This document shows, piece by piece, positions 15,392 to 33,945 of a stretch of 64,000 nucleotides of DNA. The DNA lies in assembly GCA_963819185.1 (NCBI GenBank), contig CAWFVG010000003.1, positions 223,984-287,983 on the forward strand. The letters run 5' to 3'. The position numbers and the translations under genes are program-made. This stretch comes from Bryobacterales bacterium. Lineage in GTDB: Bacteria > Acidobacteriota > Terriglobia > Bryobacterales > Bryobacteraceae. The notes below the pieces were generated by a model, which saw nothing but the letters and a program-made list of their open reading frames with translations, had not been told where the DNA came from and ran no database searches. The stretch's first letter is position 1. Every line of letters begins with the position of its first letter.

Positions 15392-16711
15392 ATGATACCG
15401 CCTACTTTACGTAGTCCCGGCGCGTTCCGCTTCTGGATCGCGGTTATGCTCACCGCGGCCGGCACGGGCGTAGGCGCCATAGCGCTGACGCGTCTCTTGG
15501 AATTCACGCAGCGCTTGGCCTGGGGAGGCTCGGGCGTCAACCTGCTCGAAGCCGTTTCAGCAACGGCGGCGTCGCGGCGTGTGCTGGTGCTGTTGGGCGC
15601 GGGTGTTCTCACAGTCGCGGGACAGATCGTGCTAAGAAGGCTGGCCAGCGGCAATGGAATCGACATCGCGGAGGCGATCTGGTTCCATGCGGGGCGCCTG
15701 CCCGCTCTGCGGACCCTGGGTAGCGCGGTCCTTTCGGTCATGGTGGTGGGGATGGGCGTGTCGCTCGGGCGCGAAGGAGCGCCCAAGCAAGCGGGCGCGG
15801 TGCTGGCCAACTTCTTTGCGGACCGTTTGCGCCTCTCCGATGAGGCGCGGCAGCTACTGGTGGCGTGCGGCTCGGGTGCGGGCATGGGAGCGGCGTACGG
15901 AGTCCCGCTGGGCGGGGCTGTGTTTTCGTTGGAGGTCGTGCGCGGCGCGCTGGCGCTCCGCTTCGTTCTGCCGGCGCTGGCCACCTCCATCATCGCGACC
16001 GCAGTGTCCTGGCTGGGATTGCGGGACGCGCCGACCTACATCATCCCCGATTTTCACAACTCGGCCTCCGTGCTGATCTGGGCGCTGCTGGCCGGACCGG
16101 TCGCAGGGCTGGCTTCGGTAGGATATGTTCGCGCCGTCGCATGGGCCGATCGCAATCGTCCGGAGGGGTGGCAGCGTTGGGTTGCGCCCATCGTGGGACT
16201 GGCGCTGGCCGGCTTCGTTTCCACGCGGTTCCCGCAGGTGCTGGGCAATGGCAGGGACATCTCGCAACTCGCCTTTATGGGTCAGGCCGCGCCGCTGCTG
16301 CTGCTGGTAATGCTTGCGCTGCGGCCTCTATCGACCACTCTATGCTTGCGGGTCGGGACGCCGGGAGGCCTGTTCACGCCCTCGTTGACCGTCGGCGCCA
16401 TGCTGGGCGGAGTCTTGGGCTACGGCTGGTCCTTGGTCTGGCCCGGCGTTCCCCCCGGGCTCTTCGCGTTGCTCGGCGCCGCGGCGGTATTGGCCGCCAC
16501 GACGCAGGGACCGGTTTCGACCGTGATCCTGATGATGGAGCTCACCGGGCGCGACCGTTCCTTCATCCTTCCGATGCTGGTCGCGGTGGTTACCGCGACG
16601 CTTACCTCACGCACCATCGAATTGCGCTCCGTCTACGAGGCCCGCCTGACCGATGAACAAGTACAGCAGCGGCGCAGGGCTCGGGAGGCCGGCGGAGTCG
16701 TCACCGCTTGA
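15392..16711 (+). CDS. ClC family voltage-gated chloride channel/antiporter
   Basis: 439 aa, multi-TM. GVSLGREGAPKQAG, GSGAGMGAAYGVPLGGAVFSLE and GTPGGLFTPSL are ClC selectivity-filter motifs. Confidence 0.9.
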   Translation: MIPPTLRSPGAFRFWIAVMLTAAGTGVGAIALTRLLEFTQRLAWGGSGVNLLEAVSATAASRRVLVLLGAGVLTVAGQIVLRRLASGNGIDIAEAIWFHAGRLPALRTLGSAVLSVMVVGMGVSLGREGAPKQAGAVLANFFADRLRLSDEARQLLVACGSGAGMGAAYGVPLGGAVFSLEVVRGALALRFVLPALATSIIATAVSWLGLRDAPTYIIPDFHNSASVLIWALLAGPVAGLASVGYVRAVAWADRNRPEGWQRWVAPIVGLALAGFVSTRFPQVLGNGRDISQLAFMGQAAPLLLLVMLALRPLSTTLCLRVGTPGGLFTPSLTVGAMLGGVLGYGWSLVWPGVPPGLFALLGAAAVLAATTQGPVSTVILMMELTGRDRSFILPMLVAVVTATLTSRTIELRSVYEARLTDEQVQQRRRAREAGGVVTA

Positions 16712-17969
16712 CCGCACCCGGAGTAACTCGCACCACGTCTTCGACGAGATCCGCGGCTTTGCGGACGCCTCCGGCCTCCTGAATCGCGGCGGCCATCCGC
16801 TGTGCGGATTTGCGATAGCCGGATTCCTCCAGCACCTCGCGGGCGAGGGCGCGCAAACCGCCCGCGTCCAGCCTTCCTAGCGCCAGGCTCCGCCCCGCTC
16901 CGCAATACTCCACCCGCCGTGCGATGGCGGGCTGCTCATAGGTGATCGGGATGGTGACCATCGGCACGCCATGGGCCAAGGAATCGAGCACCGTGTTCAG
17001 ACCGGCGTGCGTGATGGTCAGTTGCGCTCGAGCCAAGATCTCCCATTGCGGCGCGTACCCGACGACAACGGGATTCCCCGGGAGCGATGCGGTCTGCTGT
17101 TCCGTTAGTCCGCCGCCGTGACTCAGAACCAACTGCACGTCCAATTCCCGGCACGCTTCCGCGATACAGCGGAACACCGGCTCGCGGCGATTCTGAAGGG
17201 TTCCCAACGACGCGTACACCAAAGGTCTTCCATCCAACCTGTCCCAGGGAAACGGAATGACGTTGGGCTGCGGGCGCCGCAAGGGACCCACATAATGGAA
17301 GTTTTTCTGCGGGCCGCAGCGGGGAAAATCGAATTCCCGAGGCAATTGCGAGATCTGCGCCCGTTTCGAAAATGACTCCTCCGCGGACGCAAGCCGCGAT
17401 AGTCCCCACTCCCTCCGGTATCGCGCCACGACGCGCGCAACCGGCCGCAGGGTCCACTCCGACATCGCGTATCCGATCCTGTTCCGCCAGCGCGCCCAAC
17501 CTGTGTCGCGATACCGCCAATCCGTGAACGGCGGCGGGAGGCATGGGTCTCGATTAATCGGCAGCGCGTTTGCAACCGTGATAAAGGGAAGGCCGAGGTG
17601 TTCAGCAATCGCGCCGCCTGCAGGTTCCATCTGATCCACCAGCAGTGCATCTATACCTGCGCTACGAATCGCCGTGGGGCCATCGCGGAGCATCATCTCG
17701 CTGCTCCGTGCGACGGCGCGAATGGTGAAGCGCAGCGCCCTCATACCCTCCAGTTCAGACAGGCGCGCCAGCGATTGCGGCAAGGATCCTGGCGGGTGAT
17801 CGCTCTCTCCAACAACCGCGAACTCGATTCCCTGCGCGAGGATTTGCGCTTCCAGATCCCGCACCTGGAAGCACGTCACGCGATGTCCGCGCGCGATCAG
17901 CTCGCGGCCCAGGGCGCCGAAGGGATGAAGGTGGCCGGCCACCGGCGGGGTGATAATCCCGAAATGCAT
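16701..17969 (-). CDS. GT1-family UDP-glycosyltransferase (MGT/CrtX-like)
   Basis: 422 aa. MHFGIITPPVAGHLHPFGALGRELIARGHRVT at the N-terminus and a THAGLNTVLDSLAHGVPMV..P donor-binding motif. Confidence 0.85.
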   Translation of the reverse strand: MHFGIITPPVAGHLHPFGALGRELIARGHRVTCFQVRDLEAQILAQGIEFAVVGESDHPPGSLPQSLARLSELEGMRALRFTIRAVARSSEMMLRDGPTAIRSAGIDALLVDQMEPAGGAIAEHLGLPFITVANALPINRDPCLPPPFTDWRYRDTGWARWRNRIGYAMSEWTLRPVARVVARYRREWGLSRLASAEESFSKRAQISQLPREFDFPRCGPQKNFHYVGPLRRPQPNVIPFPWDRLDGRPLVYASLGTLQNRREPVFRCIAEACRELDVQLVLSHGGGLTEQQTASLPGNPVVVGYAPQWEILARAQLTITHAGLNTVLDSLAHGVPMVTIPITYEQPAIARRVEYCGAGRSLALGRLDAGGLRALAREVLEESGYRKSAQRMAAAIQEAGGVRKAADLVEDVVRVTPGAVKR

Positions 17970-17975
17970 CCTGAA

Positions 17976-19643
17976 CTAGAGTTCCACGGATCGCAGCCCG
18001 GAAGATGAAGACCCCGCGCGCAGGCCGAGCCCATAGCGGCCCGGCGCCAGGATGCCCGCCGGGTCGGCCAGGTGCTTGATGCCTTCCACGAAGCGTTCGT
18101 ACGCTCCCCCAGTCCGGAGCCCCACCATGGATTGAATCCCCAGCCGGTAGGGAATATAACCTTTCTCGGTGAGCTCTTGGCGGAGCTGTTCGTAACAGGA
18201 AAGCGCGCGCTCGTCTTCTCCGGGCTGGTCGCGATCGAAGGTGATGGAGATCACGCAGATCAGAGCGCGTTCTGTGATCAGCGTTAGGGAGAGCAGCGGC
18301 TCGAAGCCATAATTCAGCATGATCCGGCTGGAAATTTCCGTCATCGCCAGTGCATGCCGTCCCTCGGCGGGCGCCACGGGAGAAAGCCACAGCAGCCCGC
18401 AACGGTCGCGGTCCGGATTCATCTGCGCCGGTGGAGGAGTGCGTTTTCGCCAGTAGGCGCTTTTGAGAGGCTGATCCGTCGGCGCCCCTTTCATCAAGCC
18501 GTAGACCGGCCGCACCAATTCGAGCGCGCGGCTGATGTCCCACCGTGCGAGCAATCCGAACAGGCCGGAGAAGCGGGAGGCCAGCGCCAGCCGCCGGTCG
18601 TCCAGAAACTGAAGCCGGGTGACGTTTCCGTGCAGCGCTTTCCGCACCAGCCGCCGCGCCTCCGCCACCTGCCCACGCGATCCATACAACCCCCCGGAGC
18701 CGTTCCACGCGCCGAAGTTCATCTTCTCCCGGAACCCGCCCATCTGCTCAGGCTTCAAGGGAACCGCGCCACCGGTTTCTTGCCAAGGATACTGTTGAAT
18801 TCCGGCCAGGACCTTGTAATCGTTACCGACGTGAATCGCACTGCGCAGAGTTCCGTTCAGGCGCAGGGGACGGAGTGCGTCGATCAAGGCAGGTAATCCG
18901 GCGGGATCGTCGCAGCGGAAAAAGAACGCCTGGAAGTGCTCCGGAGCCGGCATCAGCCACAGCGTCATGCGCGTGACTACACCGAAGTTGGACTGCGCGA
19001 ACAGGCCATCCAGGCTCGGTCCCAGGCCCCAGCGGAATACCGGCGCGGACAGAGCGCCGGGAAAGCGCGCCGCTCCTGTTTCCAGCATTTCGCCGGTGGA
19101 AAGGACCACCTCAAAGTCGCACGCCTGGGCGATGTGCTCGCCGTAAGGTGTGTGCCCGAACCCTCGCTCCAGCGTGTTGCCTACCAGGCTGCAATCCGGA
19201 CTGGACCCGGTGCCATCGATCCATAACCGCGAGTTTCGCGCGCGCAAAAACTCGAACAACTGCCCTTGCGTTACGCCCGGCTCGACCGTTACGTAGCCCA
19301 GTTCCTCGCTGAAATCCAAAATCCGGCTCATGCGGCTCAAATCCAGCAGCACGCAACCATCAGTCACCGGTACGCCCGAGCCGTATCCCCAGTTCCGGCC
19401 GGAGCTCACTGGGTAAAGGGGAATACCGAAGTGGCTGGCGATGCGCAGCGTTTGCCGGACTTCCTCGCGTGTGGCCGGCCTTAGAATCGCCGGGATGCGT
19501 TGTTTGACCGGAAAGGTGGCAGTAGCGGCGGCGCGTAATTGGTCTTCGGAAGCCACCACGTTCTCTGTGCCGAGAACCAGCTCCCACTGCCGAAGGGCAG
19601 CCTGATCGAGCATGCGTCTACCTTCTTCCCGGTGCGTAGGCAC
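17976..19643 (-). CDS. FAD-binding oxidoreductase (PCMH/VAO-type FAD-linked oxidase)
   Basis: 555 aa. PAILRPATREEVRQTLRIASHFGIPLYPVSSGRNWGYGS and LLDLSRMSRILDFSEELGYVTVEPGVTQGQL are typical of the FAD_binding_4 domain. Confidence 0.85.
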   Translation of the reverse strand: MPTHREEGRRMLDQAALRQWELVLGTENVVASEDQLRAAATATFPVKQRIPAILRPATREEVRQTLRIASHFGIPLYPVSSGRNWGYGSGVPVTDGCVLLDLSRMSRILDFSEELGYVTVEPGVTQGQLFEFLRARNSRLWIDGTGSSPDCSLVGNTLERGFGHTPYGEHIAQACDFEVVLSTGEMLETGAARFPGALSAPVFRWGLGPSLDGLFAQSNFGVVTRMTLWLMPAPEHFQAFFFRCDDPAGLPALIDALRPLRLNGTLRSAIHVGNDYKVLAGIQQYPWQETGGAVPLKPEQMGGFREKMNFGAWNGSGGLYGSRGQVAEARRLVRKALHGNVTRLQFLDDRRLALASRFSGLFGLLARWDISRALELVRPVYGLMKGAPTDQPLKSAYWRKRTPPPAQMNPDRDRCGLLWLSPVAPAEGRHALAMTEISSRIMLNYGFEPLLSLTLITERALICVISITFDRDQPGEDERALSCYEQLRQELTEKGYIPYRLGIQSMVGLRTGGAYERFVEGIKHLADPAGILAPGRYGLGLRAGSSSSGLRSVEL

Positions 19644-19676: not shown

Positions 19677-20525
19677 TTATTGTACAGCGAGCGCCAAATT
19701 TTCTTCAAATCCCAGAGCGCCGCGCATTGCGGAAAGCGCGAATGGCGCCGCGGACGAAGAGTCTCTCCGGATGACCGGCGCTGTGAGCCAGTAGGCGCAC
19801 AGATCGCTGACCCAGGATTCGAAACGCGGGTTGGCGTGGATCGAATCGAAGCGCAGAACTTCCATCTCGCACCGGTATTGAGGATCGTAATAAGGCGGCA
19901 GGTCGGTCCGATTCGCCTGCAACGAAGATCCTCCGATGCGCCGGAGGATCTCCGAGGAGCAATGCCTGCGTGTAGCGGTAGTGATTCCGATGCAGCCTCC
20001 CAGCGCGCGAGCCAACCCGTACGTCGCCAGCGCGATGCGCAAGGCTTCGCGCGACCGCCGCAGTTCCGGCGCCAGGGCCCAGCCGCCCACTTCGACATAG
20101 GAGACCCCGCGCCGCCGGGCTTGCTCGACATCGCGGGCCACAGCGGCGCGAAATGCCATGCCCCATTCGCCCGACGACGCCAGCGCCGCGTTTCGAACCG
20201 ACAGGCGATGGAACCCGATGGTGTTCGGGTGAGCGACATAACGGGAACAGCCGGCCACTTCCCCCTTTTGGTCCAGCGCTACCACATGCCAGGCGTGCTC
20301 ATCGCCGGAAAGCCGGTGACGGCCGTCCGTGCTGAGTTGATTCCCCTCAATGGCCCCGTCCTCCAGATACAGCTTCCCCCGCAAGCGCTGTATGCCGGAC
20401 AGCAGTATTTCGTGGCGGGAGGAATTCGATTGGACGTTTTCGAAACGCCGCGGAACGAAAGCGTCGGGAGGAGCCAGCAAGACGAGCCTCTCGCAACGGA
20501 ACTCCTTCTTATGGCAAGACTTCAT
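19677..20525 (-). CDS. LuxI/FeeM-fold GNAT N-acyl synthase-like protein (resembles the PEP-CTERM/exosortase-associated acyltransferase family)
   Basis: 282 aa. Blocks RLRGKLYLEDGAI, DGRHRL, EVGGWAL, TATRRHCSSEILRRIGG and LPPYYDPQYRCEMEVLRF. About 45% identical by eye to the ORF at 22264-23097. Confidence 0.6.
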   Translation of the reverse strand: MKSCHKKEFRCERLVLLAPPDAFVPRRFENVQSNSSRHEILLSGIQRLRGKLYLEDGAIEGNQLSTDGRHRLSGDEHAWHVVALDQKGEVAGCSRYVAHPNTIGFHRLSVRNAALASSGEWGMAFRAAVARDVEQARRRGVSYVEVGGWALAPELRRSREALRIALATYGLARALGGCIGITTATRRHCSSEILRRIGGSSLQANRTDLPPYYDPQYRCEMEVLRFDSIHANPRFESWVSDLCAYWLTAPVIRRDSSSAAPFALSAMRGALGFEENLALAVQ

Positions 20526-20843
20526 AGCGGACCCGTTCCGGATTCAAAAATCAGACCGGCCGGAACGGCGCGCGTCAGGAAGCTGTTGTTAAGAATGAAT
20601 CGGTCCCTGACTGGGTGGCCTTTAGTTGCGCGGACCTTAGAGGGCCCTGGTACAACCCCGAACCCAGTACTATTTTTCGCTTAAGCCTGTTACCGCACTT
20701 TTCCCAGGCCACCGGCAGGCACGTTTCCGGGTATCGGGGTGCGTGGCGGGCTGGCAAAATTCATCTCGTGGACCGGTTCCAACCACGCGGACACCGGTTC
20801 TGAACGACAAGAAACGGAGGCCCGGAAAGGTAGAACAAACCTG

Positions 20844-21653
20844 ATGAAATATCTAACTCTATTTGCATTTTCTTTAGCCGCGCCGTCCTTGACGATGGCC
20901 TCGCCTCTTTTAGGCGGGTTTGACCTGGACGCCGGCGCCGGCCAGCAAGTCGCAGTAGGGCCTTGCATGGTAGGTGCAACATCCGCCGATTGCATCGACT
21001 TTGACTTTAGCGGCACGAAGAGCATACCAACGCCGCCGAACGCCCCGATCGCCACCAGCGGGACTGTGGACGGAACCGGGGACAGCGCGGTGTTTACGCT
21101 TGCTTCCGCATACATGGGAGATCCCAGCGGAAGTGACGTCACCGTCGCCGACCTCAACAGCATCACCGACCCGACGGGCGGCGCGTCAACCTTGGCAACG
21201 CCCTTCATCACTTTTGCCGGGGAGCCTTGGACCATTACCCTGACCGAGGTCATGCCCGGAAGTTACGGGGCCGCTTCCTGCCTTGCCGGGACCAGCACGT
21301 CTACGGACCAGTGCACGCCGCCTGGCACTCCCTTTAATGAATCGCAGACATCCTGCGCCACCAGCACCATCGGAGTCACAACCTGCGACGTCGCCGTGAA
21401 CTTTAACTTCACAGGCGTCGCCAACGACGGCAGCGGTAACAAGACCTTGGTCTCCGGAACCTTTGGGACCACGTTCACCGGCACGACGTTGCAGCAGGTC
21501 AATGAGGCGATTCTAGCCGGTCACGATGTGGTCACATCGGACAGCGCCACCATAGGGTTCACAGCCGTCCCGGAGCCGGTGACCTTCGCGCTAGTCGCAG
21601 GAGGTTTGTTCTTCCTGGGTCTGGTCGGACGGAAGAATCCTCGACAGCTTTAG
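20844..21653 (+). CDS. PEP-CTERM sorting domain-containing secreted protein
   Basis: Internal ATG gives MKYLTLFAFSLAAPSLTMA (signal peptide). Thr/Gly/Ser-rich body. C-terminus VPEPVTFALVAGGLFFLGLVGRKNPRQL is PEP motif + TM + basic tail. Confidence 0.85.
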   Translation: MKYLTLFAFSLAAPSLTMASPLLGGFDLDAGAGQQVAVGPCMVGATSADCIDFDFSGTKSIPTPPNAPIATSGTVDGTGDSAVFTLASAYMGDPSGSDVTVADLNSITDPTGGASTLATPFITFAGEPWTITLTEVMPGSYGAASCLAGTSTSTDQCTPPGTPFNESQTSCATSTIGVTTCDVAVNFNFTGVANDGSGNKTLVSGTFGTTFTGTTLQQVNEAILAGHDVVTSDSATIGFTAVPEPVTFALVAGGLFFLGLVGRKNPRQL

Positions 21654-21702
21654 CCCAAAAACTCAAATCTCCTATCACGCGTGGTAACCACGACGGCTTT
21701 CA

Positions 21703-21739
21703 GGCCATGCAGCACTTCGGTGCGGTGTGGCCTTTTTTT
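21703..21739 (+). terminator. Rho-independent terminator after the PEP-CTERM gene
   Basis: GGCCA..GCAC-TTCG-GTGC..TGGCC nested stem followed by T7 (21733-21739). Confidence 0.7.
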
Positions 21740-21746
21740 CTTTGAG

Positions 21747-21829
21747 GGCTACTTTGGCCCCGGGGGCTACTTTGGCCCGGGGGGCTACTTTGGCCCGGGG
21801 GGCTGCTTTGGAAGGAGACTTTGGAAGGA
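21747..21829. repeat. Tandem repeat array: 18-bp unit GGCTACTTTGGCCCGGGG x3.6, then CTTTGGAAGGA x2
   Basis: Units at 21747, 21765, 21783 and 21801 (partial). CTTTGG core recurs 5 times (spacing 18, 18, 18, 13). Lies between the terminator and the start at 21858. Confidence 0.9.
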
Positions 21830-21857
21830 CACTTGCACTCGCCAACGTGAAAAGGCT

Positions 21858-22208
21858 ATGCTTGTCGCCGAAACATTGTCTGCCCCCGCCACGCAACGCT
21901 ATCTGTGCATGGACACGTTGCCCGCCACCTTCGCGCGCGGGACTCCGATGGCTGCAGACGTTGCAGACCACGTAATTCTTATCGAAGTGTGGGAAGCGGG
22001 AGGCGTCCTGCAAACCGAATGCGCGCCGGAGCGTGGCTCGCGAGTGCGCCTTTCTACTTCGCAGGGAATTGTCCGGGGCCGGGTCAAGTCGTCCGCCGGC
22101 GATGACTACGGCTATCTGGTGGAATTCTCCGTGGATCCCGCGGAGAATTGGTTTCCGGATTCTTATCGCCCTCCCTATTTGCGCCCCGCAACCGAGAGCC
22201 GGGAGTGA
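21858..22208 (+). CDS. Hypothetical small protein (about 116 aa), possibly beta-barrel/PilZ-like
   Basis: First ATG after the terminator/repeat array within ORF 21681-22208 (MLVAETLSAP..). No diagnostic motif recognised. Start is uncertain. Confidence 0.4.
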   Translation: MLVAETLSAPATQRYLCMDTLPATFARGTPMAADVADHVILIEVWEAGGVLQTECAPERGSRVRLSTSQGIVRGRVKSSAGDDYGYLVEFSVDPAENWFPDSYRPPYLRPATESRE

Positions 22209-22227
22209 CCGGGCCTGAGCTGGCGAG

Positions 22228-22270
22228 CCAGTGCCTAGCCCCCAGTGCTTAGCCCCCCAGTGTTTAGCCC
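22228..22270. repeat. Tandem 14/15-bp repeat CCAGTG(C/T)(C/T)TAGCCC(C) x3
   Basis: Units at 22228-22241, 22242-22256 and 22257-22270, in the convergent gap. The last unit contains the stop codon of the minus-strand gene 22264-23097. Confidence 0.9.
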
Positions 22271-23097
22271 ATGGACGCGACGTGGAACCTTGGGAGTTGG
22301 ACCGTACCCGTGCGTGGCGCCGCGACCCACTCGGGTTCGGCCGCGACGTTGGTTATGACCGCTGCGGTTCGCAGGGTCTCCTTGATCTCTTCGATCCAGA
22401 CGCTATACCGCGGATTCGGAGCCCACGAGTAAAACCGCAACAGCTCCATCTCGCACTCATATTGGGGATCGTAGTAAGCCGGCAGCGCCGAACCGCGCCA
22501 CTCCAGCGGCCGTCCTCCCATCCTCCGCAGGATCGACGCGGAGCCGTGCCGACGCGTCGCGCTGCTCAACCCAATTGCGCCGCCCAACTGCTGCGTTAAG
22601 GCATAGGTTGCCAGCACCATGCGCAAGGCCTCCGCAGTCCCTCGAATTTCCTCATCCAGAGCCCACCCGCCAAGCTCCGAGACCGGACAATCCAGCCGTT
22701 TGGACAGGTCCAGCTCGGCATCGATCGCGCCGCTCAACTTTTCGCTCCATTCCCGTGACAGGGCCAGGGCGGACTGCGCAACGCCTAGCTCGCGGAATGA
22801 TGTTCCGGCCGGATACTCTTTGTAGCGTTTGCAACCGCATACTTGTGCGTTGCCATCGAGGACCAATAAGTGCCAACTGGTTCGATCGCTCTCCAGCCGG
22901 TGACGGCCGTCCACCAAGTGCCAAGGCTTGATCGCCCCGTCTTGCAGATAAACCCGTCCACGAAGCTTTTGTGTTTCCGCCAGCATCTCCGCATGCTGCT
23001 TCGCATCGACACGGACATTGGCGAATCCGTCCGGGACCGCGCGCTGCGATGGAGCCAATAACAATAATTCTCGCGACGTAGACACAGTTGGACTCAT
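22264..23097 (-). CDS. LuxI/FeeM-fold GNAT N-acyl synthase-like protein, paralog of 19677-20525
   Basis: 277 aa. KLRGRVYLQDGAI, DGRHRL, ELGGWAL, SATRRHGSASILRRMGG and LPAYYDPQYECEMELLRF. Confidence 0.6.
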   Translation of the reverse strand: MSPTVSTSRELLLLAPSQRAVPDGFANVRVDAKQHAEMLAETQKLRGRVYLQDGAIKPWHLVDGRHRLESDRTSWHLLVLDGNAQVCGCKRYKEYPAGTSFRELGVAQSALALSREWSEKLSGAIDAELDLSKRLDCPVSELGGWALDEEIRGTAEALRMVLATYALTQQLGGAIGLSSATRRHGSASILRRMGGRPLEWRGSALPAYYDPQYECEMELLRFYSWAPNPRYSVWIEEIKETLRTAAVITNVAAEPEWVAAPRTGTVQLPRFHVASMG

Positions 23098-23504: not shown

Positions 23505-24254
23505 TTGCAACGCGCTTGGAAGATGCACCGAACTGCACACCGGAATTCTCTCCACAAACTACTGCCTGCGGCTCCGCTATTGCGCCGCCCGTCGAATCGA
23601 GCCTCACACGCCAGCATCGCCGCGCAGGTTCTGGTAGCGCAAGAGAGCGAACGCCGCAGAGTCTGCCGCGAGATGCACGACGATCTGGCTCAGCGTGTCG
23701 CTTTGCTTGAGTTCGAAATCGAAAGCATGAAGCGGCGTTTCAATTCCCAGCCGCAGGTGCTTCCGGAGCTCGACTCGCTGCGCGGCAGCGTGGCCATGCT
23801 CGCCGAAGACGTTCATCGCATTTGTGAACGCCTGCACCCGGTGGTGCTGGATAACCTCGGCCTGGTTCGCGGCGTCGAGTTTCTGTGCCAGGACCAGTCC
23901 AGGGCCAGCACTGCCCACGCCGTGTTCTCACACGGAAATATTCCAAAACAGCTTCCCGCCAATGTGTCGCTGTGCATCTACCGGATCGTCCAGGAGGCGC
24001 TCAGCAACGCCACGAAATATTCCGGAGCGGCCGAAGTTAACGTGGCGCTTCGCACAGAGGGCGGTGGAATCCGCGCCATCGTAAGCGATGCCGGCCGCGG
24101 TTTCGACCCCCAAGCGGACGGTCACTCGGGTTTGGGCTTGGTGTTTATGGAGGAGCGGGTCAAGCTGCTGGGCGGACGCTGCCGCATCACATCCGCACCC
24201 GGCAAGGGCACACGGATCTCCGCTTGGGTCCCGATCGGACCTGGTCCGAAATGA
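23505..24254 (+). CDS. HisKA_3-type histidine kinase with no recognisable sensor or TM domain
   Basis: 249 aa at most (first start after an in-frame stop). H-box ESERRRVCREMHDDLAQ about 40 aa from the N-terminus. N-box QEALSNATKYSGA. G-boxes DAGRGFD and GLGLVFMEERV. Confidence 0.85.
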   Translation: MQRAWKMHRTAHRNSLHKLLPAAPLLRRPSNRASHASIAAQVLVAQESERRRVCREMHDDLAQRVALLEFEIESMKRRFNSQPQVLPELDSLRGSVAMLAEDVHRICERLHPVVLDNLGLVRGVEFLCQDQSRASTAHAVFSHGNIPKQLPANVSLCIYRIVQEALSNATKYSGAAEVNVALRTEGGGIRAIVSDAGRGFDPQADGHSGLGLVFMEERVKLLGGRCRITSAPGKGTRISAWVPIGPGPK

Positions 24255-24422
24255 ATGGCTCATGTCCAATGACGGCTAGCGCCATTCGCACTGAAACCAT
24301 GCTTGCGAGCGCCTTGGGCGATTGCGGCAGCACACTCTCCTGAGGAGCCGGGACAGGTGACGGACACTATCCCTGACCGGGTGGACGGAACCGGAACCGG
24401 CTCTTCAGGGCTGTCATCGCGC

Positions 24423-25041
24423 ATGCCGCGCATCGTCATTGCCGACGACCACCTTCTCATGGCCCAAGGCTTGGCGAAGTTGTTGGCGGAGGATTTTTAC
24501 GTGGCGGCGGCGGTAAACAACGGGCGGGACTTGCTGGCGGCCGCGGCCAAGCATACCCCTGACCTGGCTTTGATGGACGTTCTGTATGCCGGAGATGACC
24601 GGCGTGGAGACCGCACGCAAACTCCGCCGCGTCGCGCCGCTCTGCAAGGTCATTCTGATCAGTATGTATGGCCAGGCCGAGTTTGTACGGGAAGCGTTCA
24701 GCGCGGGCGCCTCCGGTTATCTGTTGAAATCTTCCGCTAGCGCGGAACTCCATGGCGCCATCCGCGAAGTAATGGACGGAAACGTCTACGTCAGTTCCAT
24801 GATCGCCAGAGATGTTCTGGCGACCCTGCTGACGCCGCCTCCGGCGGCTCTAAGCCCGCGCGAGCGCGAAATTCTGGCGCTGGTGGCGGAGGGATGCTCC
24901 GCCAAGGAAATTGCCGGGCGTCTGCACATCGCCGTGAAGACCGCCCAATTCCACCGGACCAATATCATGACCAAGCTCGGGATTCACTCCACTGCGGAAT
25001 TGACCAAGTACGCGCTGGGTCACGGCATCGTCTCGTATTAA
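24423..25041 (+). pseudogene. NarL/FixJ-type response regulator (REC + LuxR/GerE HTH) split by a +1 frameshift just after the phospho-acceptor Asp
   Basis: Frame 0 reads MPRIVIADDH..PDLALMDV. The +1 frame from 24586 reads MPEMTGVETARKL..GASGYLLK..LSPREREILALVAEGCSAKEIA. There is one extra nt within CTGT at 24582-24585. Confidence 0.75.
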
Positions 25042-25087: not shown

Positions 25088-25780
25088 ATGGGGCGAAAGC
25101 TATGCATCGCCATAGCGGTGTGGTTTGCCGCGAGTTCGTTTTCGATGTGGGGTTTTGCGGACCACGCTACAGCCGAGTATGGCTATACGAAACTGCAGGG
25201 GCACAGCGTGTATGTGAGTCCTGAGGCGATGGCGGACAAGGCGCTGATGGATCGGGTTCTGATTAGACTGGACGCCGACCTGAAGAAAATCCATGAGCTG
25301 CTCCCGCCCGCGGCAATGAAGCCGCTGGAAGAGGTCCCCTTCTTTATAGAGCGCGACAATCCAGGGATGACCATGGCCTACCATGGGCGGGCGAACACCG
25401 GAATCAACCCCGATAAGAGGGGTGCAGTCGAAATGAATAATATGCGGCAGTACCTGAACGCGGTTGCGTTCAAGCCGTTCCTGGTGCTGCACGAAATGTC
25501 GCACGCCTATCACGATCGCGTCCTGGGATTCGATAACGGCATCGTGAAGTGGGCCTTCGATCTGGCCGTGGCGAGCCATAAGTATGAAAGTGTAAGCCGC
25601 ATTGGCGGGACGGCGGGCAGAAAGGAACGGGCCTACGCGCTGACCAATTACATGGAATATTTCGCCGAAATCTCGTCATCCTACTGGGGCCGGAATGACT
25701 ACTACCCGTTTACCCGGACGGACTTGGCCGAATTCGACCCATCGGGACTGGCGATGCTTGAGAAGGTGTGGCTGAAGTAG
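25088..25780 (+). CDS. Secreted putative zinc metallopeptidase (HExxH)
   Basis: 230 aa. Signal peptide. LVLHEMSHAYHD contains HExxH. Family not recognised. The stop codon abuts the att repeat. Confidence 0.55.
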   Translation: MGRKLCIAIAVWFAASSFSMWGFADHATAEYGYTKLQGHSVYVSPEAMADKALMDRVLIRLDADLKKIHELLPPAAMKPLEEVPFFIERDNPGMTMAYHGRANTGINPDKRGAVEMNNMRQYLNAVAFKPFLVLHEMSHAYHDRVLGFDNGIVKWAFDLAVASHKYESVSRIGGTAGRKERAYALTNYMEYFAEISSSYWGRNDYYPFTRTDLAEFDPSGLAMLEKVWLK

Positions 25781-25804
25781 TGAGCCGGGCGGGAGTCGAA
25801 CCCG
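25780..25804. repeat. att repeat (distal copy of tRNA-Lys 3' end)
   Basis: GTGAGCCGGGCGGGAGTCGAACCCG is identical to 29283-29307 inside the intact tRNA-Lys. Confidence 0.9.
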
Positions 25805-25938
25805 AAGCGCGCGTTGCAGCAAAGTAAGTTGCTGATTCTCCGAAGCGCCGGAATAGCGCAAAACGTTGGTTTCGGGAATCCGTCGTACGTGTATCGTACA
25901 CGGAGCCGTGTTCAGATTCGCACCCGCCCGTCCCCTTC

Positions 25939-26300
25939 CGCATCGTTCCTACTTTTATCAGATCCGCAAACCCGCTGTAAAATTTCCGAGACGCTTCCCC
26001 CGCCCCTAAAAGTATCGCGTTGCGGTCCCTTGCGATTCATTCCTATGCCAGCGAAGAACGAATTCCAACTCCAGGGGAGAGACATCGAACTTTTGCACTC
26101 CGTGCATCAGCTTCGCATCGCCACCATCGATCACCTGGCCGCCCTCTCCGGCCGCTCTGTCCGCGCCCTCTGGGGCAGGCTGCATAAACTGGCCGAGCGC
26201 CGTTATCTCGGCCCCGTCGCGCGCTTCATGCAGAAGCACGTGTACGCCGTCGGCTCCGCCGGAGTCCCTCTATTAATAGAGGAGGGATTCGCTCCGGCGG
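25939..26300. repeat. Copy 1 of an internal direct duplication of about 345 bp (promoter + 5' part of the Replic_Relax gene)
   Basis: Aligns by eye with 27546-27880. Many mismatches and a roughly 24-nt length difference in the leader. Confidence 0.85.
25955..25983 (+). promoter_or_regulatory. Sigma70-like promoter TTATCA-N17-TAAAAT (copy 1)
   Basis: Hexamers at 25955-25960 and 25978-25983. Same architecture in copy 2. Confidence 0.4.
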
Positions 26301-26332
26301 TAAACATAGCCGAGACAAGGAGCTACTGGTAG
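26045..26332 (+). pseudogene. Truncated Replic_Relax (replication-relaxation) family gene, N-terminal wHTH part only
   Basis: 95 aa (MPAKNEFQLQGRDIELLHSVHQLRIATIDHLAALSGRSVRALW..). Matches residues 1 to about 85 of the 220-aa copy at 27625, then diverges and stops. Confidence 0.7.
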
Positions 26333-26362
26333 TAAGGCAGTCTCCTCGCGACGGCGCGAATG

Positions 26363-26908
26363 CTAACTACTTTTTTTTGACTTCGGAAATAACGCGGCGA
26401 CCTGGAGACCTGCACCCTTTGCGGTGGCAAGGGCCGACTTAAGCATCGCCGGCTGTTCTGCTCGCCACCGCTCGAACCGAGAACTAACAGCCTCTTTGAA
26501 TTGACCAATCTTCACATATCCTGCCCCGTGAACGGCGACCGCCTGGCGGTTGCCTCCTTCAGAAGAGGAAAAGAAGCGTTGGCGTTCGGTTTGTGAGAGG
26601 CTGAGGCGCCGGACGAGCCGTTTATCCTCAAGGCTATTCAGAAGGCGGACGATGTTGGCTTCGCCAAACCCTCGTTTTACCAGCAAGTCCGTAAGATCCT
26701 GCCGAAGCATGATGGTCTCGCCGTTCTCGTTCTGAAGGCCGTTTTGAAACAAGTGCCAGAGGATGATCCACTGACCGATGCTGATGCCGCACTCTTCCGC
26801 GACCCCGTTCAGCGCCGGCAGAAGATACGCCAAGCCGTCGAAGAACACATCCGGCAATACACGGTCTCCTTCTTCCCGGCGAGCCACGCACCTATTGTAG
26901 CGCGACAT
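26363..26908 (-). CDS. MarR-like winged-helix transcriptional regulator
   Basis: 181 aa. ISIGQWIILWHL..LRQDLTDLL..ANIVRLLNSLEDKRLVRR. AT-rich codon usage relative to the core genome. Confidence 0.6.
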   Translation of the reverse strand: MSRYNRCVARREEGDRVLPDVFFDGLAYLLPALNGVAEECGISIGQWIILWHLFQNGLQNENGETIMLRQDLTDLLVKRGFGEANIVRLLNSLEDKRLVRRLSLSQTERQRFFSSSEGGNRQAVAVHGAGYVKIGQFKEAVSSRFERWRAEQPAMLKSALATAKGAGLQVAALFPKSKKSS

Positions 26909-26920
26909 TCAATAGTTCAG

Positions 26921-26948
26921 TTGACTAAAGTCTTTTTAGAGATATACT
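26921..26948 (+). promoter_or_regulatory. Sigma70-like promoter TTGACT-N16-TATACT
   Basis: Hexamers at 26921-26926 and 26943-26948. Divergent from the MarR-like gene start (26908). Confidence 0.5.
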
Positions 26949-27025
26949 ATTCAGGAATGCACACTGCATCCGTTACTGCGAGCCAAGGGATGACTATGCC
27001 AGCGCGAGTCGGCCGTTCGTAGTAT

Positions 27026-27054
27026 AAAGCCCACGAGTCAGATTCGTGGGCTTT
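27026..27054. terminator. Perfect 11-bp stem/7-nt loop hairpin (terminator or attenuator-like)
   Basis: AAAGCCCACGA-GTCAGAT-TCGTGGGCTTT. A/T tracts on both sides. Lies about 75 nt downstream of the TATACT box. Confidence 0.5.
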
Positions 27055-27094
27055 GACGCTCGCTACTGCGAACGGCCGGAAACATGGAGGGCCC

Positions 27095-27313
27095 ATGCGT
27101 CCAGTTGAGGAAGTACCAGCAACCGCTCCGCGGACGCTTTTCGACAGTACGTCCGCTCCCAATCCTTGTCAAATAGACTCCCAGAGCCCTGAGGCTCCTG
27201 ACGCTCAGCAGGGAAATCTTGAGTGGCGAATTCGGAAAGGCCTCATCGTTGTACGCCGCGAAGAGTTGCCCGGGGGCGGTCAACGCCACGCCTTCAAAAA
27301 CTTCTTGCCATGA
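27095..27313 (+). CDS. Hypothetical protein (72 aa)
   Basis: GGAGG SD (27086-27090) 4 nt before the ATG. ATGA overlap with the next ORF suggests a translationally coupled pair. Confidence 0.45.
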   Translation: MRPVEEVPATAPRTLFDSTSAPNPCQIDSQSPEAPDAQQGNLEWRIRKGLIVVRREELPGGGQRHAFKNFLP

Positions 27314-27522
27314 CTACGATAAAAGCGCCCGAGCCCAATGGCCGCCTTAGGCAGCATGACACCGTCGAAATACTTCTCGCGGCGGCGCTGGAACGCGCAA
27401 GATATAGTAGGGACACACAGTTCGTGTATTACTATGAACGCCTCCTTATGGAGTCCGCCACTATACCGCTCTGGCCACCTGAAGAAAACGGCCGCGTTGT
27501 GAAAGCAGCCCCCCTGCGCTGA
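27310..27522 (+). CDS. Hypothetical protein (70 aa)
   Basis: MTTIKAPEPNGRLRQHDTVEILLAAALERARY... Start overlaps the stop of the previous ORF (ATGA). Confidence 0.45.
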   Translation: MTTIKAPEPNGRLRQHDTVEILLAAALERARYSRDTQFVYYYERLLMESATIPLWPPEENGRVVKAAPLR

Positions 27523-27545
27523 TGGCTACGTAGATCTTGGCACTC

Positions 27546-27880
27546 CGCAATTCCGCTCTTATCAGATCCGCAAAGCCGTGGTAGAATCACCGGGACGCTT
27601 CCCCGCCGGTCCTTATGATTCCCCATGCCAGCGAAGAACGGATTCCAACTCCAGAGGAGAGACATCGAACTTTTGCGCTCCGTGCATCAGCTTCGCATCG
27701 CCACCATCGATCACCTGGCTGAACTCTCCGGCCGCTCCGTTCGTGCCCTTTGGAGTAGGCTGCATAAGCTCACCGAGCGGCGCTATCCCGCATCCGTTGC
27801 CCGCTTCATGCAGAAGCACGTTTATGCGATCGGCTCCGCGGGATTCCAGGTATTAATAGGGGAGGGCTGCGCACCGGCGG
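27546..27880. repeat. Copy 2 of the internal direct duplication
   Basis: See 25939-26300. Includes promoter TTATCA-N17-TAGAAT (27559-27587) with TGn extended -10. Confidence 0.85.
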
Positions 27881-28287
27881 ACCTCAGGGAGAAACGCATC
27901 CGGCACTCGCTGTTCATCGCGGACATCCATACACAGCTCTTGCTCCTCACGCGCACGGGGCCTATCACTCTCACCCGCTGGCAGGAAGGATCTGCCTTAT
28001 GGGACTCCGTTCCCGGCCGCGCCGGTGAAGACGCGATCCCGATCCGTCCCGATGTGTACTTCATCCTGGAGCACGCAGGACGGCCAAGGGAGAGAGATAA
28101 ATTTCATAGTTTCTTGGAAGCGGATCGATCGACGATGAACCATGATCGGATGGCAGCGAAGATCGAGGGCTACGTCCAACGGCGGCTGGATGCCCGGAAA
28201 TATCCCGGCCTGCATTCCTTCATCGTGGCCACCGTGACGGCGACCCGAGCCCGCGCCGAAGAGTCCGGAAAGATCTGCTTCCCCTGA
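27625..28287 (+). CDS. Replic_Relax (replication-relaxation) family protein
   Basis: 220 aa. N-terminal wHTH (DIELLRSVHQLRIATIDHLAELSGRS) and IRPDVYFILE..FHSFLEADRSTM nuclease-like core, as I recall for this family. Confidence 0.65.
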   Translation: MPAKNGFQLQRRDIELLRSVHQLRIATIDHLAELSGRSVRALWSRLHKLTERRYPASVARFMQKHVYAIGSAGFQVLIGEGCAPADLREKRIRHSLFIADIHTQLLLLTRTGPITLTRWQEGSALWDSVPGRAGEDAIPIRPDVYFILEHAGRPRERDKFHSFLEADRSTMNHDRMAAKIEGYVQRRLDARKYPGLHSFIVATVTATRARAEESGKICFP

Positions 28288-28411
28288 TCCCCCGTGCCGC
28301 CGCACGCGAGGCCTACCTCTTCATCCCTTCGAGCAGCTTACGCTCGCTACACTCTTGCCGAAAGCCGCGGGCAACGCGGCGCCGTGAACTGTCGCTCTCA
28401 AGCGCGATCCG

Positions 28412-28678
28412 TTACCGGTACGTCTTCTCGGATTTCAGCGCCACCCATGCCACGTCGACAATGCGTTGCTCGCGATGAGGAAAGAAAATAATCCGGTAGT
28501 CGCCCGTGCGCTTGCGATAGTAGCCCTTCCAAGCCTTGCCCTGGAGCGCCTTCACGTCGCCCTGGAACGGGTCGTGCTCCATCTGGCTTATACTCCGTAT
28601 GACTTGCCGCCGAGCCTTTTCAGGAAGGCCATCTATGAAAGCCTGGGCGTCGTCAGCGACCCTAACGACCCAATTCAT
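28412..28678 (-). CDS. Type II toxin, RelE/ParE family
   Basis: 88 aa. ..DPFQGDVKALQGKAWKGYYRKRTGDYRIIFFPHREQRIVDVAWVALKSEKTY is the classic RelE/ParE fold pattern. Confidence 0.8.
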   Translation of the reverse strand: MNWVVRVADDAQAFIDGLPEKARRQVIRSISQMEHDPFQGDVKALQGKAWKGYYRKRTGDYRIIFFPHREQRIVDVAWVALKSEKTYR

Positions 28679-28943
28679 GCTTTACGTCGCGCCACAACTT
28701 GAAGCGACCTTGCTTGATCTGTTTCATGCCGCGTCTCACCATCTTCCCTTCCTGCGGCGTGAGGACCGTGTCATCATCCACCAAACGTTTTGCTTTAATC
28801 AGCACGCCGCCCGGCTTTTGGGTGAAGGCCACGAAATCGCCCTCTTGGATGTTGAGGGTCTCCAGGAACTCGCGAGGGATCACGACCTGCCGCCGCTGCC
28901 CCACGCGCCCGATCTTTTCAGTTGTGGCCGCTTTGCTTGCCAT
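28662..28943 (-). CDS. Type II antitoxin, AbrB/MazE/SpoVT family
   Basis: 93 aa. GQRRQVVIPREFLETLNIQEGDFVAF (swapped-hairpin motif). 17-nt overlap with the toxin gene. Confidence 0.8.
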   Translation of the reverse strand: MASKAATTEKIGRVGQRRQVVIPREFLETLNIQEGDFVAFTQKPGGVLIKAKRLVDDDTVLTPQEGKMVRRGMKQIKQGRFKLWRDVKHELGR

Positions 28944-29082
28944 GCCTTCAGATTATCTGATCGACAGAAATTGTCAAATTGCAAAGGCTTCCGAAACCTT
29001 TGCGGCGACGGTCTCGTTATCTAAGCATGGCATATAGCGTCCGAAAGACCGGGCATTCATGAAGACCATACCCATCCCGCTA

Positions 29083-29196
29083 CTACGCCGCATTTTGAAC
29101 TCCTTCGATCCAAACCGGACACCGGCGCGCGTCCAGTTTGAGGTAGCGGTCCGCGTGCGGACAGGATCTTTTGTGGCGTCGATACAGCGTCAGCAT
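29083..29196 (-). pseudogene. Tyrosine integrase remnant (N-terminal 37 codons only)
   Basis: MLTLYRRHKRSCPHADRYLKLDARRCPVWIEG resembles the Cys-rich N-terminus of tRNA-targeting integrases. No catalytic domain in any frame downstream. Adjacent to tRNA-Lys. Confidence 0.5.
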
Positions 29197-29280
29197 ACTC
29201 CGGCCTTGGCCCGAGTATCGTACCCTATCGTACGCGGCCAAGGGGAGAACCCTATCCTGCTGATTGCGCGTAAAAAACGG

Positions 29281-33700: not shown

Positions 33701-33941
33701 CCGAATACATGTAGCTCATGTTGTCGACGCCGGTGATTTGTTCTTCGAGCGGAGTTGCGACGGATTGCTCCAATGTTTGCGCGTCCGCGCCGGGATAGTT
33801 GGCGTTCACCTGTATTTCCGGCGGGACGATATTGGGAAATTGCGCAACCGGCAAGGCGAGGGCGGAGACCAATCCGATAACCACCATCAGAATGGCGATC
33901 ACCATGGCGACGATCGGACGGTTGATGAAGAATCTCGACAC
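30783..33941 (-). CDS. RND efflux permease (AcrB/MexB-like, HAE1)
   Basis: 1052 aa. MSRFFINRPIVAMVIAILMV.., 12-TM layout with two large periplasmic loops, AKNAILIVEFA motif. Confidence 0.95.
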   Translation of the reverse strand: MSRFFINRPIVAMVIAILMVVIGLVSALALPVAQFPNIVPPEIQVNANYPGADAQTLEQSVATPLEEQITGVDNMSYMYSVNSSSGSTQITVDFDVSTDPNIDQVLTQLRTSLAQPQLPAQVTTAGLVVQKSLTAPMMLISLSSPNGSYDSTFLANYAYINLVDELTRVPGIAKIQVFGAGQYAMRVWVKPDQLAKLHVTVPQIIQALQTQNNVNPAGQVGGEPIPSGQQFTYTVRAQGRLITPEEFGEIILRANPDGSTLRLKDVARLELGAQTYNLAGRYNGKPSAILACYQLPGSNAVDAANRLRARIQELSKRFPTDLAYTVSLDTTAAVTASMRDIIYTLLEALALVVVVVYVFLQDWRATLIPLLAVPVSLIGVFIVFPVLGFSINTLSLFGLVLAIGLVVDDAIVVVEAVQRHIEEGLSPRDAAFKAMEEVSGPVVAIALILSAVFIPTIFIPGITGRLYQQFAVTIAISVIFSAFNALSLSPALSALLLKPKQARSRGPFGFFFRWFNRVFSRGTETYVGLCGFLIRKAALSFLALAAFTAAALYIGGKLPTSFLPEEDYGYVYVSLQLPNASSMERTSEVAKQVEKVIMNTPGVQGCTSVIGFSLLSRVQDTYNAFFFVTEKPWDERKKPEEQYVAIRNHITRELSKIRDGVAFSFAPPAIPGVGTSGGVTFMLEDRSGGDLQFLGQNVDKFVAAARKRPELTGVTSTFLPGVPQQFVDVDRAKVESEGVDIGQVYQTLQTFMGGYLVNYFNRFGRQWQVYVEAEGEYRTRAENMNQFYVSNGAGAMVPLSAVTSIKSITGPEFTMRYNEYHVAQINAAAAPGYSSGQATKALEETFAQTMPSEMGFDYSGMSFQEQKASQGVPPSAIFGLSLLFVFLILAALYESWSLPFSVLLGTPLAVFGAYLTLWLRAFENNVYAQIGLVMLIGLAAKNAILIVEFAKAEFEKGRTLDDAALTGARIRLRPILMTAFAFILGCVPLWIATGSGAVSRQVLGTAVIGGMMAASLIAIFFVPVTFDVIERLSLRFSKKPPQPAHEEVEQLR

Positions 33942-33945
33942 GGCC

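Follow-up and report, generated by a model that had tools for sequence, protein, structure and literature searches.

We describe a gene cluster from a Bryobacterales bacterium in which a gene for an acyltransferase of the LuxI/FeeM fold heads an operon with genes for a phenol-oxidising flavoenzyme and a glycosyltransferase, divergently from the gene for a PEP-CTERM surface protein. The cluster lies in a 64,000-nucleotide stretch of DNA (assembly GCA_963819185.1, contig CAWFVG010000003.1, positions 223,984 to 287,983 of the forward strand), hereafter the window, numbered from its first letter. Three things are new here: the acyltransferases form a separate synthase family; this family is systematically paired with, and occasionally fused to, a flavoenzyme of the VAO/PCMH family; and it is associated one-to-one with a dedicated, so far uncurated, PEP-CTERM family. 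A literature search of incomplete coverage found no paper describing such a synthase/oxidase/PEP-CTERM module. The interpretation that we favour, with somewhat better than even confidence, is that the locus directs synthesis of a small-molecule lipid, is restricted to Acidobacteriota (Bryobacterales and relatives) and is genetically coupled to a dedicated PEP-CTERM surface protein.

The synthases form a distinct family with a LuxI/FeeM-type fold

The genes at the centre of the analysis are the following:
16701..17969, minus strand: GT1 glycosyltransferase of the macrolide-glycosyltransferase (MGT) type, last gene of the operon (Pfam and NCBIfam matches)
17976..19643, minus strand: 4-phenol oxidase/dehydrogenase of the VAO/PCMH family, dependent on flavin adenine dinucleotide (FAD) (FAD_binding_4 match, PchF similarity)
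19677..20525, minus strand: ORF-A, type-A LuxI/FeeM-fold acyltransferase (N-acyl synthase-like), 282 aa (AlphaFold model, Foldseek)
20844..21653, plus strand: PEP-CTERM protein of a dedicated family (alignment A2, sorting-tail matches)
22264..23097, minus strand: ORF-B, type-B LuxI/FeeM-fold acyltransferase paralog, 277 aa (46% identity to ORF-A)

ORF-A heads a tight minus-strand operon with the oxidase and the glycosyltransferase: 33-63 nt separate its stop codon from the oxidase start, and 6 nt separate the oxidase stop from the glycosyltransferase start. A preliminary description of the locus, drawn from the sequence by eye, had the coordinates and lengths of both minus-strand ORFs exactly right, and its estimate of about 45% identity between them agrees well with BLASTP (239 aa aligned at 46% identity, with 63% positives; E 2e-74). 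The blocks that it saw as shared (RLRG.LYL.DGAI, DGRHRL, E(V/L)GGWAL, ATRRH.S.ILRR.GG and YYDPQY.CEME.LRF) are invariant or near-invariant columns in our 40-sequence family alignment (A1). The interval that it delimited, 19677-23097, does contain everything listed for it: between the paralogs, on the plus strand, the PEP-CTERM gene is followed by its terminator, a tandem array and a 116-aa ORF; its boundaries, however, leave out the oxidase and glycosyltransferase genes, which lie below 19677, and a second tandem array (22228-22271) had not been mentioned.

The AlphaFold (AF2) model of ORF-A, computed on alignment A1 (predicted local distance difference test, pLDDT, 89.3; predicted template modelling score, pTM, 0.84), has a LuxI/FeeM-type GNAT fold, as the preliminary description had supposed for the paralogs. 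A Foldseek search of this model against the PDB is led by the acyl-homoserine lactone (AHL) synthases BjaI (4.9e-7), RpaI (1.4e-6), TofI (2.6e-6), MesI and LasI (2.1e-5), with the best of the LuxI-type synthases at E 5e-7 to 1e-5 and target-normalised template modelling (TM) scores of 0.62-0.68. FeeM (2g0b chains) comes at 6.6e-5 to 2.4e-4 with a target-normalised TM of ~0.63, and generic GNATs follow.

In spite of this shared fold, no existing profile claims the family. We scanned both window ORFs and 40 homologs, and all fell below threshold for TIGR03694, LuxI and Pfam FeeM, so that membership in these families was rejected. Pfam FeeM (PF21926) gives ORF-A 18.2 bits against a cutoff of 27 and does not match ORF-B; it is found in 20 of the 40 homologs at E<0.1 (best 3.2e-5), and a few database homologs carry a precomputed PF21926 assignment. 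An NCBIfam scan at E<0.01 returned no match for either ORF. TIGR03694 in particular gave nothing at E<0.01 for ORF-A or ORF-B, and 3 of the 40 homologs at E<=10 (best 0.045). Pfam Autoind_synth matched neither the window ORFs nor any of the 40 homologs, and the NCBIfam models for TraI AHL synthases reached 12 of the 40 homologs at best ~1e-3, below their cutoffs. Weak as they are, the FeeM and TraI matches, and LasI as the leading PDB profile match, agree with the predicted fold. The window proteins thus stand outside the model of the exosortase-associated acyltransferase family, TIGR03694, that the preliminary description had called to mind. That family was also said to have neither a known product nor a known role. 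The first half needs correcting: TIGR03694-type members expressed from environmental DNA are reported to make long-chain N-acyl amino acids (Craig et al. 2011, as cited in PMC7293339 and PMC4897644). The second half, on the physiological role, stands.

To gauge the size of the family, we used an exhaustive profile search of 1.84 billion representatives. At E<=1e-3 it returned 843 clusters (50% identity), of which 672 pass E<=1e-10. These counts, of which the best 150 clusters were listed, are far below what reaching the LuxI or FeeM families would give. Among the matches listed, all homologs are named 'hypothetical protein' and come from metagenome-assembled genomes (MAGs) of Bryobacteraceae and other Acidobacteriota. 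The synthases are, then, a distinct and unannotated LuxI/FeeM-fold family, so far confined to Acidobacteriota.

Since the closest structural matches are the coenzyme A (CoA)-dependent AHL synthases BjaI and RpaI, ahead of FeeM, the paralogs might be divergent LuxI-type synthases that make aryl- or acyl-homoserine-lactone-like quorum signals. A histidine kinase and NarL-type response regulator next to ORF-B, together with the PEP-CTERM gene, would then be the response arm, and the phenol oxidase would tailor a 4-hydroxyphenyl acyl group, for instance from dihydro-p-coumaroyl to p-coumaroyl as in RpaI-type signals. The TraI matches point the same way, as does a search of PDB sequences with the family profile cut to residues 1-205, which returned LasI and MesI alone, both weakly, with LasI on top. 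The conserved residues of the N-terminal site for S-adenosylmethionine (SAM) in LuxI proteins are Arg, Phe, Trp, Asp, Asp and Arg. In the weak LasI alignment (E 0.099) R49, Y53 and R95 of the family align with an Arg, a Phe and an Arg of LasI; the position matching the conserved LasI Trp, however, varies within the family, and Autoind_synth is absent, with every match to an AHL model below its cutoff. We return to this alternative below, where the regulatory genes are described.

The full-length family profile also gave weak PDB matches (E 0.05-1) to the alpha1 domain of the major histocompatibility complex (MHC) class I heavy chain. These arise from the C-terminal motif P.YYDPQY.CEMEVLRFDS..PNPRF (ORF-A residues ~207-262) and are almost certainly a compositional or motif coincidence, one that swamps PDB sequence searches.

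A phenol-oxidising flavoenzyme is paired with the synthase and fused to it in two genomes

One scan of species-representative genomes yielded 77 related loci, all from Acidobacteriota and mostly from Bryobacterales. The oxidase family is present in 54 of them, and in 46 its gene lies directly downstream of the synthase on the same strand. In two independent Acidobacteriota MAG assemblies the synthase and the oxidase form a single ORF (L072, 9890-12526, 878 aa; L076, 9890-12490, 866 aa). No other single observation argues as strongly that both enzymes work one after the other on the same small molecule.

The oxidase (545-555 aa, with ATG 19613 or GTG 19643 as the likely start) matches FAD_binding_4 (PF01565) at 7.7e-27, and its closest solved relatives are PchF (1dii/1wve, 2e-83), eugenol oxidase (EUGO, 1e-65) and VAO (1e-55). 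In the alignment with 1dii, PchF Tyr95 and Tyr473-Arg474, which we take to be the phenolate-binding residues, match the conserved GYG and YR of the window enzyme. The PchF similarity and this conserved Tyr/Tyr/Arg triad place the oxidase, as judged from its sequence, in the 4-phenol-oxidising VAO/PCMH subgroup. Enzymes of this subgroup use para-substituted phenols as substrates and proceed by way of a p-quinone methide.

The same subgroup contains FeeG and CndG, which decarboxylate N-substituted tyrosines oxidatively to a hydroxystyryl enamide; no structure has been solved for FeeG, CndG or the related HyeB (PMC11350588). For hyellamide, the proposal is that an acyltransferase works together with HyeB, a FeeG homolog, and with the glycosyltransferase HyeH, which decorates the phenol (PMC11959600), and the window operon holds these same three functions. 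Its glycosyltransferase matches Pfam UDPGT (1.5e-18) and EryCIII-like_C as well as the NCBIfam MGT model TIGR01426 (2.4e-58; 198 bits, under the 260-bit cutoff). Homologs of it (at least 30% identity over at least 60% of the length) occur in 17 of the 77 loci, and a second glycosyltransferase family occurs in 9.

The neighbourhood also repeatedly contains a fatty-acid desaturase (15 loci), a PEMT/ICMT-like methyltransferase (10), a SAM methyltransferase (6), an ABC ATPase (17), a MacB-type permease (11) and a HlyD adaptor (9). This is a typical tailoring-and-export set of lipid natural products. An AI-2E family transporter was also seen near the synthase in 4 of the 77 loci (L043, 14395-15459, and three others).

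A dedicated PEP-CTERM family is inherited together with the synthase

The product of the PEP-CTERM gene has a signal peptide (MKYLTLFAFSLAAPSLTMA), a T/G/S-rich all-beta body with a conserved Cys pair, and a C-terminal tail of VPEP, hydrophobic helix and RK (VPEPVTFALVAGGLFFLGLVGRKNPRQL). Its start at ATG 20844 is backed by the family alignment A2, in which the motifs IDFDF.G, TVDGTGD, NFITF, W.ITLTE and C..C.P.G.PFN recur and P-E-P is invariant. The public gene call for this protein (P0270, 228 aa) begins at an internal Met and so loses the signal peptide. NCBIfam models recognise only the sorting tail in this family (TIGR02595 in 22 of 37 homologs), and the AF2 model (pLDDT 82, all-beta) has no significant match among PDB folds (best E 0.04, TM<0.2).

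A motif scan found 70 PEP-CTERM ORFs in the loci and the window, and 63 of the 70 fall into one homologous cluster. By homology clustering, 64 of the 77 loci carry a member of this dedicated family no more than 10 kb from the synthase, and 7 of the 13 loci without it are contigs shorter than 10 kb. An adjacent copy is present in 38 loci, against ~4.7 expected from the PEP-CTERM density elsewhere in the same loci (Poisson P 5e-22); this expectation is conservative, since the copies elsewhere mostly belong to the same family. The gene usually takes one of two places: in 23 loci, as in the window, it diverges from the synthase and lies immediately upstream of it, and in 15 it directly follows the oxidase on the same strand. 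The link to PEP-CTERM genes on which the preliminary description had staked its proposal is thus strong among homologs, and it is a link to one PEP-CTERM family.

Statistics of this kind bear directly on whether the neighbours are related at all. Bryobacterales genomes are rich in PEP-CTERM genes and the nearest solved relative of the oxidase, PchF, is catabolic, so the cluster could be a chance neighbourhood of a catabolic p-cresol or 4-alkylphenol oxidase with one PEP-CTERM gene of many. The census effectively refutes this: adjacency is kept across 77 species-level genomes, fusion ORFs occur in two, and nearly all of the nearby PEP-CTERM ORFs belong to one family and adjoin the synthase far beyond expectation. 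Nor does a PchC-like cytochrome c partner stand beside the oxidase.

We found no exosortase when we went through the multi-TM ORFs of the window and the multi-TM neighbours that recur in the 77 loci. Those of the window comprise a CLC channel, the pump of an RND system, a permease resembling MacB and a 554-aa ORF without assignment, and those of the loci are AI-2E, ABC, SSF and similar transporters. The census of exosortase linkage that the preliminary description had proposed therefore came out negative at the local level.

Absence of a local exosortase weighs on the idea that the lipid is the acceptor or anchor when exosortase cleaves the PEP-CTERM tail, which would leave the cargo covalently lipid- or glycolipid-anchored, in a manner comparable to archaeosortase-dependent attachment. 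The very tight co-inheritance with one PEP-CTERM family and the operon-like, same-strand arrangement in 15 loci fit such a role. We know of no system in which lipid attachment by an exosortase has been demonstrated, and an N-acyl enamide would have no obvious free nucleophile unless the sugar supplied one. In favour of the idea, another N-acyl synthase family has long had an unexplained link to PEP-CTERM/exosortase systems (Craig et al. 2011, as cited in PMC7293339 and PMC4897644). On this balance we consider a covalent anchor unlikely.

The preliminary description had proposed that the locus couples the production of acylated signals to a specific exosortase substrate or acylates that substrate. 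A specific link between these synthases and one such substrate is supported statistically; direct acylation of the PEP-CTERM protein by the acyltransferases is disfavoured. Only gene adjacency speaks for direct acylation, which would face several obstacles. The synthases, the oxidase and the glycosyltransferase have no signal peptides, whereas the cargo is Sec-exported, and the PEP-CTERM family has no invariant Lys or Tyr in alignment A2. The synthase-oxidase fusion and the phenol-oxidase class suggest a small phenolic substrate, the characterised relatives of this fold class all act on small amines according to the descriptions of the structure matches, and genes for a desaturase, methyltransferases and MacB/HlyD export are found in related loci. 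We therefore regard acylation of the cargo as very unlikely. A PEP-CTERM Tyr as the substrate of the oxidase was ruled out as well, because the family lacks an invariant Tyr and the oxidase resides in the cytoplasm.

ORF-B and a putative accessory module of one sub-lineage

The remaining features in and beside the interval between the synthases are:
21702..21740 (hairpin 21702-21733), plus strand: intrinsic-terminator-like hairpin with U7 (folding energy)
21746..21811, no strand: tandem array, 3.7 copies of an 18-bp unit, GGCTACTTTGGCCCGGGG (repeat search)
21858..22208, plus strand: conserved 116-aa cytoplasmic protein, weakly PilZ-like (homologs in 13 loci)
22228..22271, no strand: tandem array, 3 copies of a 14/15-bp unit, overlapping the ORF-B stop codon (repeat search)
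23505..24254, plus strand: short sensor-less histidine kinase, HisKA_3 and HATPase, divergent from ORF-B (Pfam)
24357..25041, plus strand: NarL/LuxR-type response regulator, REC and GerE, frameshifted near 24575-24585 (Pfam, frame analysis)

We placed 102 synthase copies in a neighbour-joining tree. ORF-A groups with the oxidase-linked copies, whereas ORF-B is one of 19 members of an old clade of its own, and 12 of these 19 adjoin a homolog of the 116-aa gene. The duplicated synthase of the preliminary description is thus a true paralogy, but one between two old clades, A (oxidase-linked) and B (small-gene-linked), and not a recent duplication; the suggestion of two products is plausible. The two clades share 57 strongly conserved positions with the same residue in each, ORF-B keeps all 57, and no position is conserved within both clades yet different between them. 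ORF-B is probably catalytically competent, to judge from these residues.

A tblastn search of the fetched loci found homologs of the 116-aa protein in 13 of them, where the gene always adjoins a type-B paralog. Its invariant residues are C17, D19, E43, D82, G85 and W98-F-P..Y..P. The link to PilZ comes solely from a Pfam PilZ match in 1 of the 13 family members (3.8e-4). There was no match to this protein among PDB sequences, and a word-index search of a 5.8-billion-protein database, within the limits of that kind of search, returned only the protein itself.

The histidine kinase and response regulator are divergent from ORF-B here and in L001, L002, L004 and L006. Homologs of this two-component system were present in ~8 of the 77 loci, far from the general linkage that the preliminary description had thought worth a census. 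The kinase has HisKA_3 and HATPase domains after ~40 N-terminal residues and no TM segment or sensor domain; its public call in a near-identical contig (193 aa) starts past the H-box and is probably wrong. The response regulator is split over two frames, with the N-terminal half of the receiver in the 24303 ORF and the rest in the 24586 ORF, and its orthologs in L001, L002, L004 and L006 are intact single ORFs. A strain contig of 99.65% identity (L078) carries the same frameshift, which makes it either a real pseudogene or a shared sequencing error.

These genes complete the evidence on AHL-like signalling by the synthases. A GerE-type regulator and a histidine kinase do adjoin ORF-B, as a signalling role would suggest. 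No LuxR-type regulator with an autoinducer-binding domain was found among the neighbours, though: the response regulator consists of REC and GerE alone, it is rare among the loci, and the window copy is frameshifted. The glycosyltransferase, desaturase, methyltransferase and MacB/HlyD neighbours resemble the tailoring and export genes of lipid natural products. We hold quorum signalling of this type to be improbable.

The hairpin 3' of the PEP-CTERM gene folds with a dG of -21.4 kcal/mol (z -3.81), and none of 200 shuffles folds as well. Neither tandem array has a counterpart at the equivalent place in the syntenic loci L001 and L004, and the units of both are found nowhere else in the window. 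We treat the arrays as lineage-specific, and the 18-bp array is probably not a functional part of the locus; conserved regulatory elements were ruled out for both, as the arrays are confined to this lineage.

Further from the synthases, the window carries an RND efflux system (OEP, AcrB-type pump and HlyD-type adaptor; 29431-35241, minus strand) and a MacB/FtsX-type permease (43674-46313, minus strand), 8-25 kb from the cluster. In related loci MacB and HlyD genes often stand beside the synthase, and a distant export partner for the window cluster is possible. Just past the cluster lies a variable island. In the window (25804-29280) it spans ~3.5 kb and holds a Replic_Relax gene (27625-28287), and in L078 (14832-20165) it spans ~5.3 kb and holds HipA/HipB, Fic and an integrase of phage type. 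The island junctions have a 77-bp sequence in common, which suggests an integration hot spot. A 230-aa secreted protein (25088-25780, plus strand) has a HEMSH (HExxH-like) motif and no Pfam or NCBIfam match, and is not conserved in the 77 loci.

A predicted pathway to a tyrosine-derived lipid

Starting from the fold of ORF-A, the class of the flavoenzyme with its substrate-binding triad, the operon structure, the fusions and the co-occurrence statistics, we infer the following course of events for the lipid biosynthetic cluster that we favour. Because the ORF-A operon holds a phenol-oxidising flavoenzyme and a sugar transferase, the lipid is expected to derive from tyrosine. ORF-A would N-acylate an amine that carries a 4-hydroxyphenyl group, with L-tyrosine as the likeliest acceptor and acyl carrier protein (ACP)- or CoA-bound acyl groups as donor. 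The flavoenzyme would then oxidise this product via a p-quinone methide. By analogy with FeeG, CndG and HyeB, the likeliest outcome is oxidative decarboxylation to an N-acyl-4-hydroxystyryl enamide, with benzylic hydroxylation or alpha,beta-dehydrogenation as alternatives. The GT1 enzyme may glycosylate the phenol, as proposed for hyellamide, and in related loci the desaturase, the methyltransferases and the MacB/HlyD ABC exporter presumably see to its tailoring and export.

We expect the PEP-CTERM protein to leave the cytoplasm, to be sorted by an exosortase whose gene lies elsewhere, and to have a functional tie to the lipid; we would guess that it binds the lipid or displays it, in the matrix or on the outer surface, or that the two are deployed together. 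ORF-B, the PilZ-like protein and the sensor-less histidine kinase with its NarL-type response regulator would constitute an accessory module of one sub-lineage, in which ORF-B probably makes a second N-acyl product that is not processed by the oxidase.

Several points weigh against this scheme. The proposed substrate follows solely from the class of the partner enzyme, and the fold of ORF-A is about as near to the SAM-using AHL synthases as to FeeM, with BjaI and RpaI matching slightly better. The oxidase, which we liken to FeeG, CndG and HyeB by subgroup, could instead act as PCMH or VAO do, as a hydroxylase or a dehydrogenase. The window cluster contains neither an ACP gene nor an acyl-activating gene, and a glycosyltransferase is present in about a quarter to a third of the loci, so that glycosylation is not universal. 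Lastly, the role that the model gives to the most conserved partner, the PEP-CTERM protein, is conjectural.

Comparison with known systems

The closest parallels are the fee cluster from environmental DNA (FeeM/FeeG) and the chondrochloren enzyme CndG, which share with the window the combination of a LuxI-like GNAT N-acyl synthase and a 4-phenol-oxidising VAO/PCMH flavoenzyme (PMC11350588). FeeM itself resembles ORF-A in fold (2g0b, E 6.6e-5) and differs from the window synthases at the level of the Pfam FeeM profile. Compared with LuxI and FeeM, the window synthases are ~80-100 aa longer, with N- and C-terminal additions. In contrast to FeeM/FeeG, the window cluster has no dedicated ACP or acyl-activating gene and is coupled to a PEP-CTERM gene, and its family has the synthase fused to the oxidase in two genomes. 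The hyellamide (hye) cluster of Hyella patelloides follows the same three-step logic of tyrosine N-acylation, flavin-dependent oxidative decarboxylation and phenol glycosylation, but its acyltransferase HyeC is of the SGNH/GDSL type, it has no reported PEP-CTERM partner and it comes from another phylum (PMC11959600).

Among systems with a PEP-CTERM connection, N-acyl amino acid synthases (NAS) of TIGR03694 ('NasY') are likewise LuxI/FeeM-related acyltransferases genetically linked to PEP-CTERM proteins. Their link is to an exosortase/exopolysaccharide (EPS) locus, whereas that of the window family is to one dedicated cargo family, with no exosortase nearby. The stieleriacine (N-acyl-tyrosine) cluster of Stieleria has a PEP-CTERM gene inside it, several NAS paralogs and a fatty-acid desaturase (PMC7293339); the oxidising partners proposed for pathways of this type are an adenylyltransferase/cyclase and a nitroreductase (PMC12479983), not a VAO/PCMH enzyme. 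The oxazolone synthetase operon OxzAB joins the N-acyltransferase OxzA to the ThiF-nitroreductase OxzB, and differs both in using a nitroreductase in place of a VAO/PCMH flavoenzyme and in yielding an oxazolone where we would expect an enamide. The CoA-dependent AHL synthases BjaI, RpaI and MesI are the best structural matches, and in the weak LasI profile alignment an N-terminal Arg, aromatic residue and Arg align with the family; the window family has no Autoind_synth match, no conservation at the position aligned with the LasI Trp and no nearby LuxR-type receptor, and stands in a context of lipid tailoring and export.

Implications

The synthase family described here is common among Acidobacteria of soils, and very little of the chemistry of this phylum has been characterised. 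It comes as a small, portable gene set of one synthase, one phenol-oxidising flavoenzyme (sometimes fused to it) and one cargo family, and its predicted product is concrete: an N-acyl-tyrosine-derived enamide, glycosylated in this genome, with a defined protein partner. The VAO/PCMH partner can be used to infer the substrate class of other orphan LuxI/FeeM-like enzymes. A genetic link between NAS and PEP-CTERM/exosortase systems has been known since 2011 without a mechanism, and the same kind of link, in an unusually sharp form, is found here in a separate, unannotated family. We think it doubtful, though worth stating, that the tyrosine-derived enamide (glyco)lipid is mechanistically required for the dedicated PEP-CTERM protein, be it as a covalent anchor or acceptor in exosortase processing or as an obligate ligand. 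If this were true, the cluster would be the first compact system of one cargo and one lipid, and would make the 15-year-old NAS-exosortase link directly testable.

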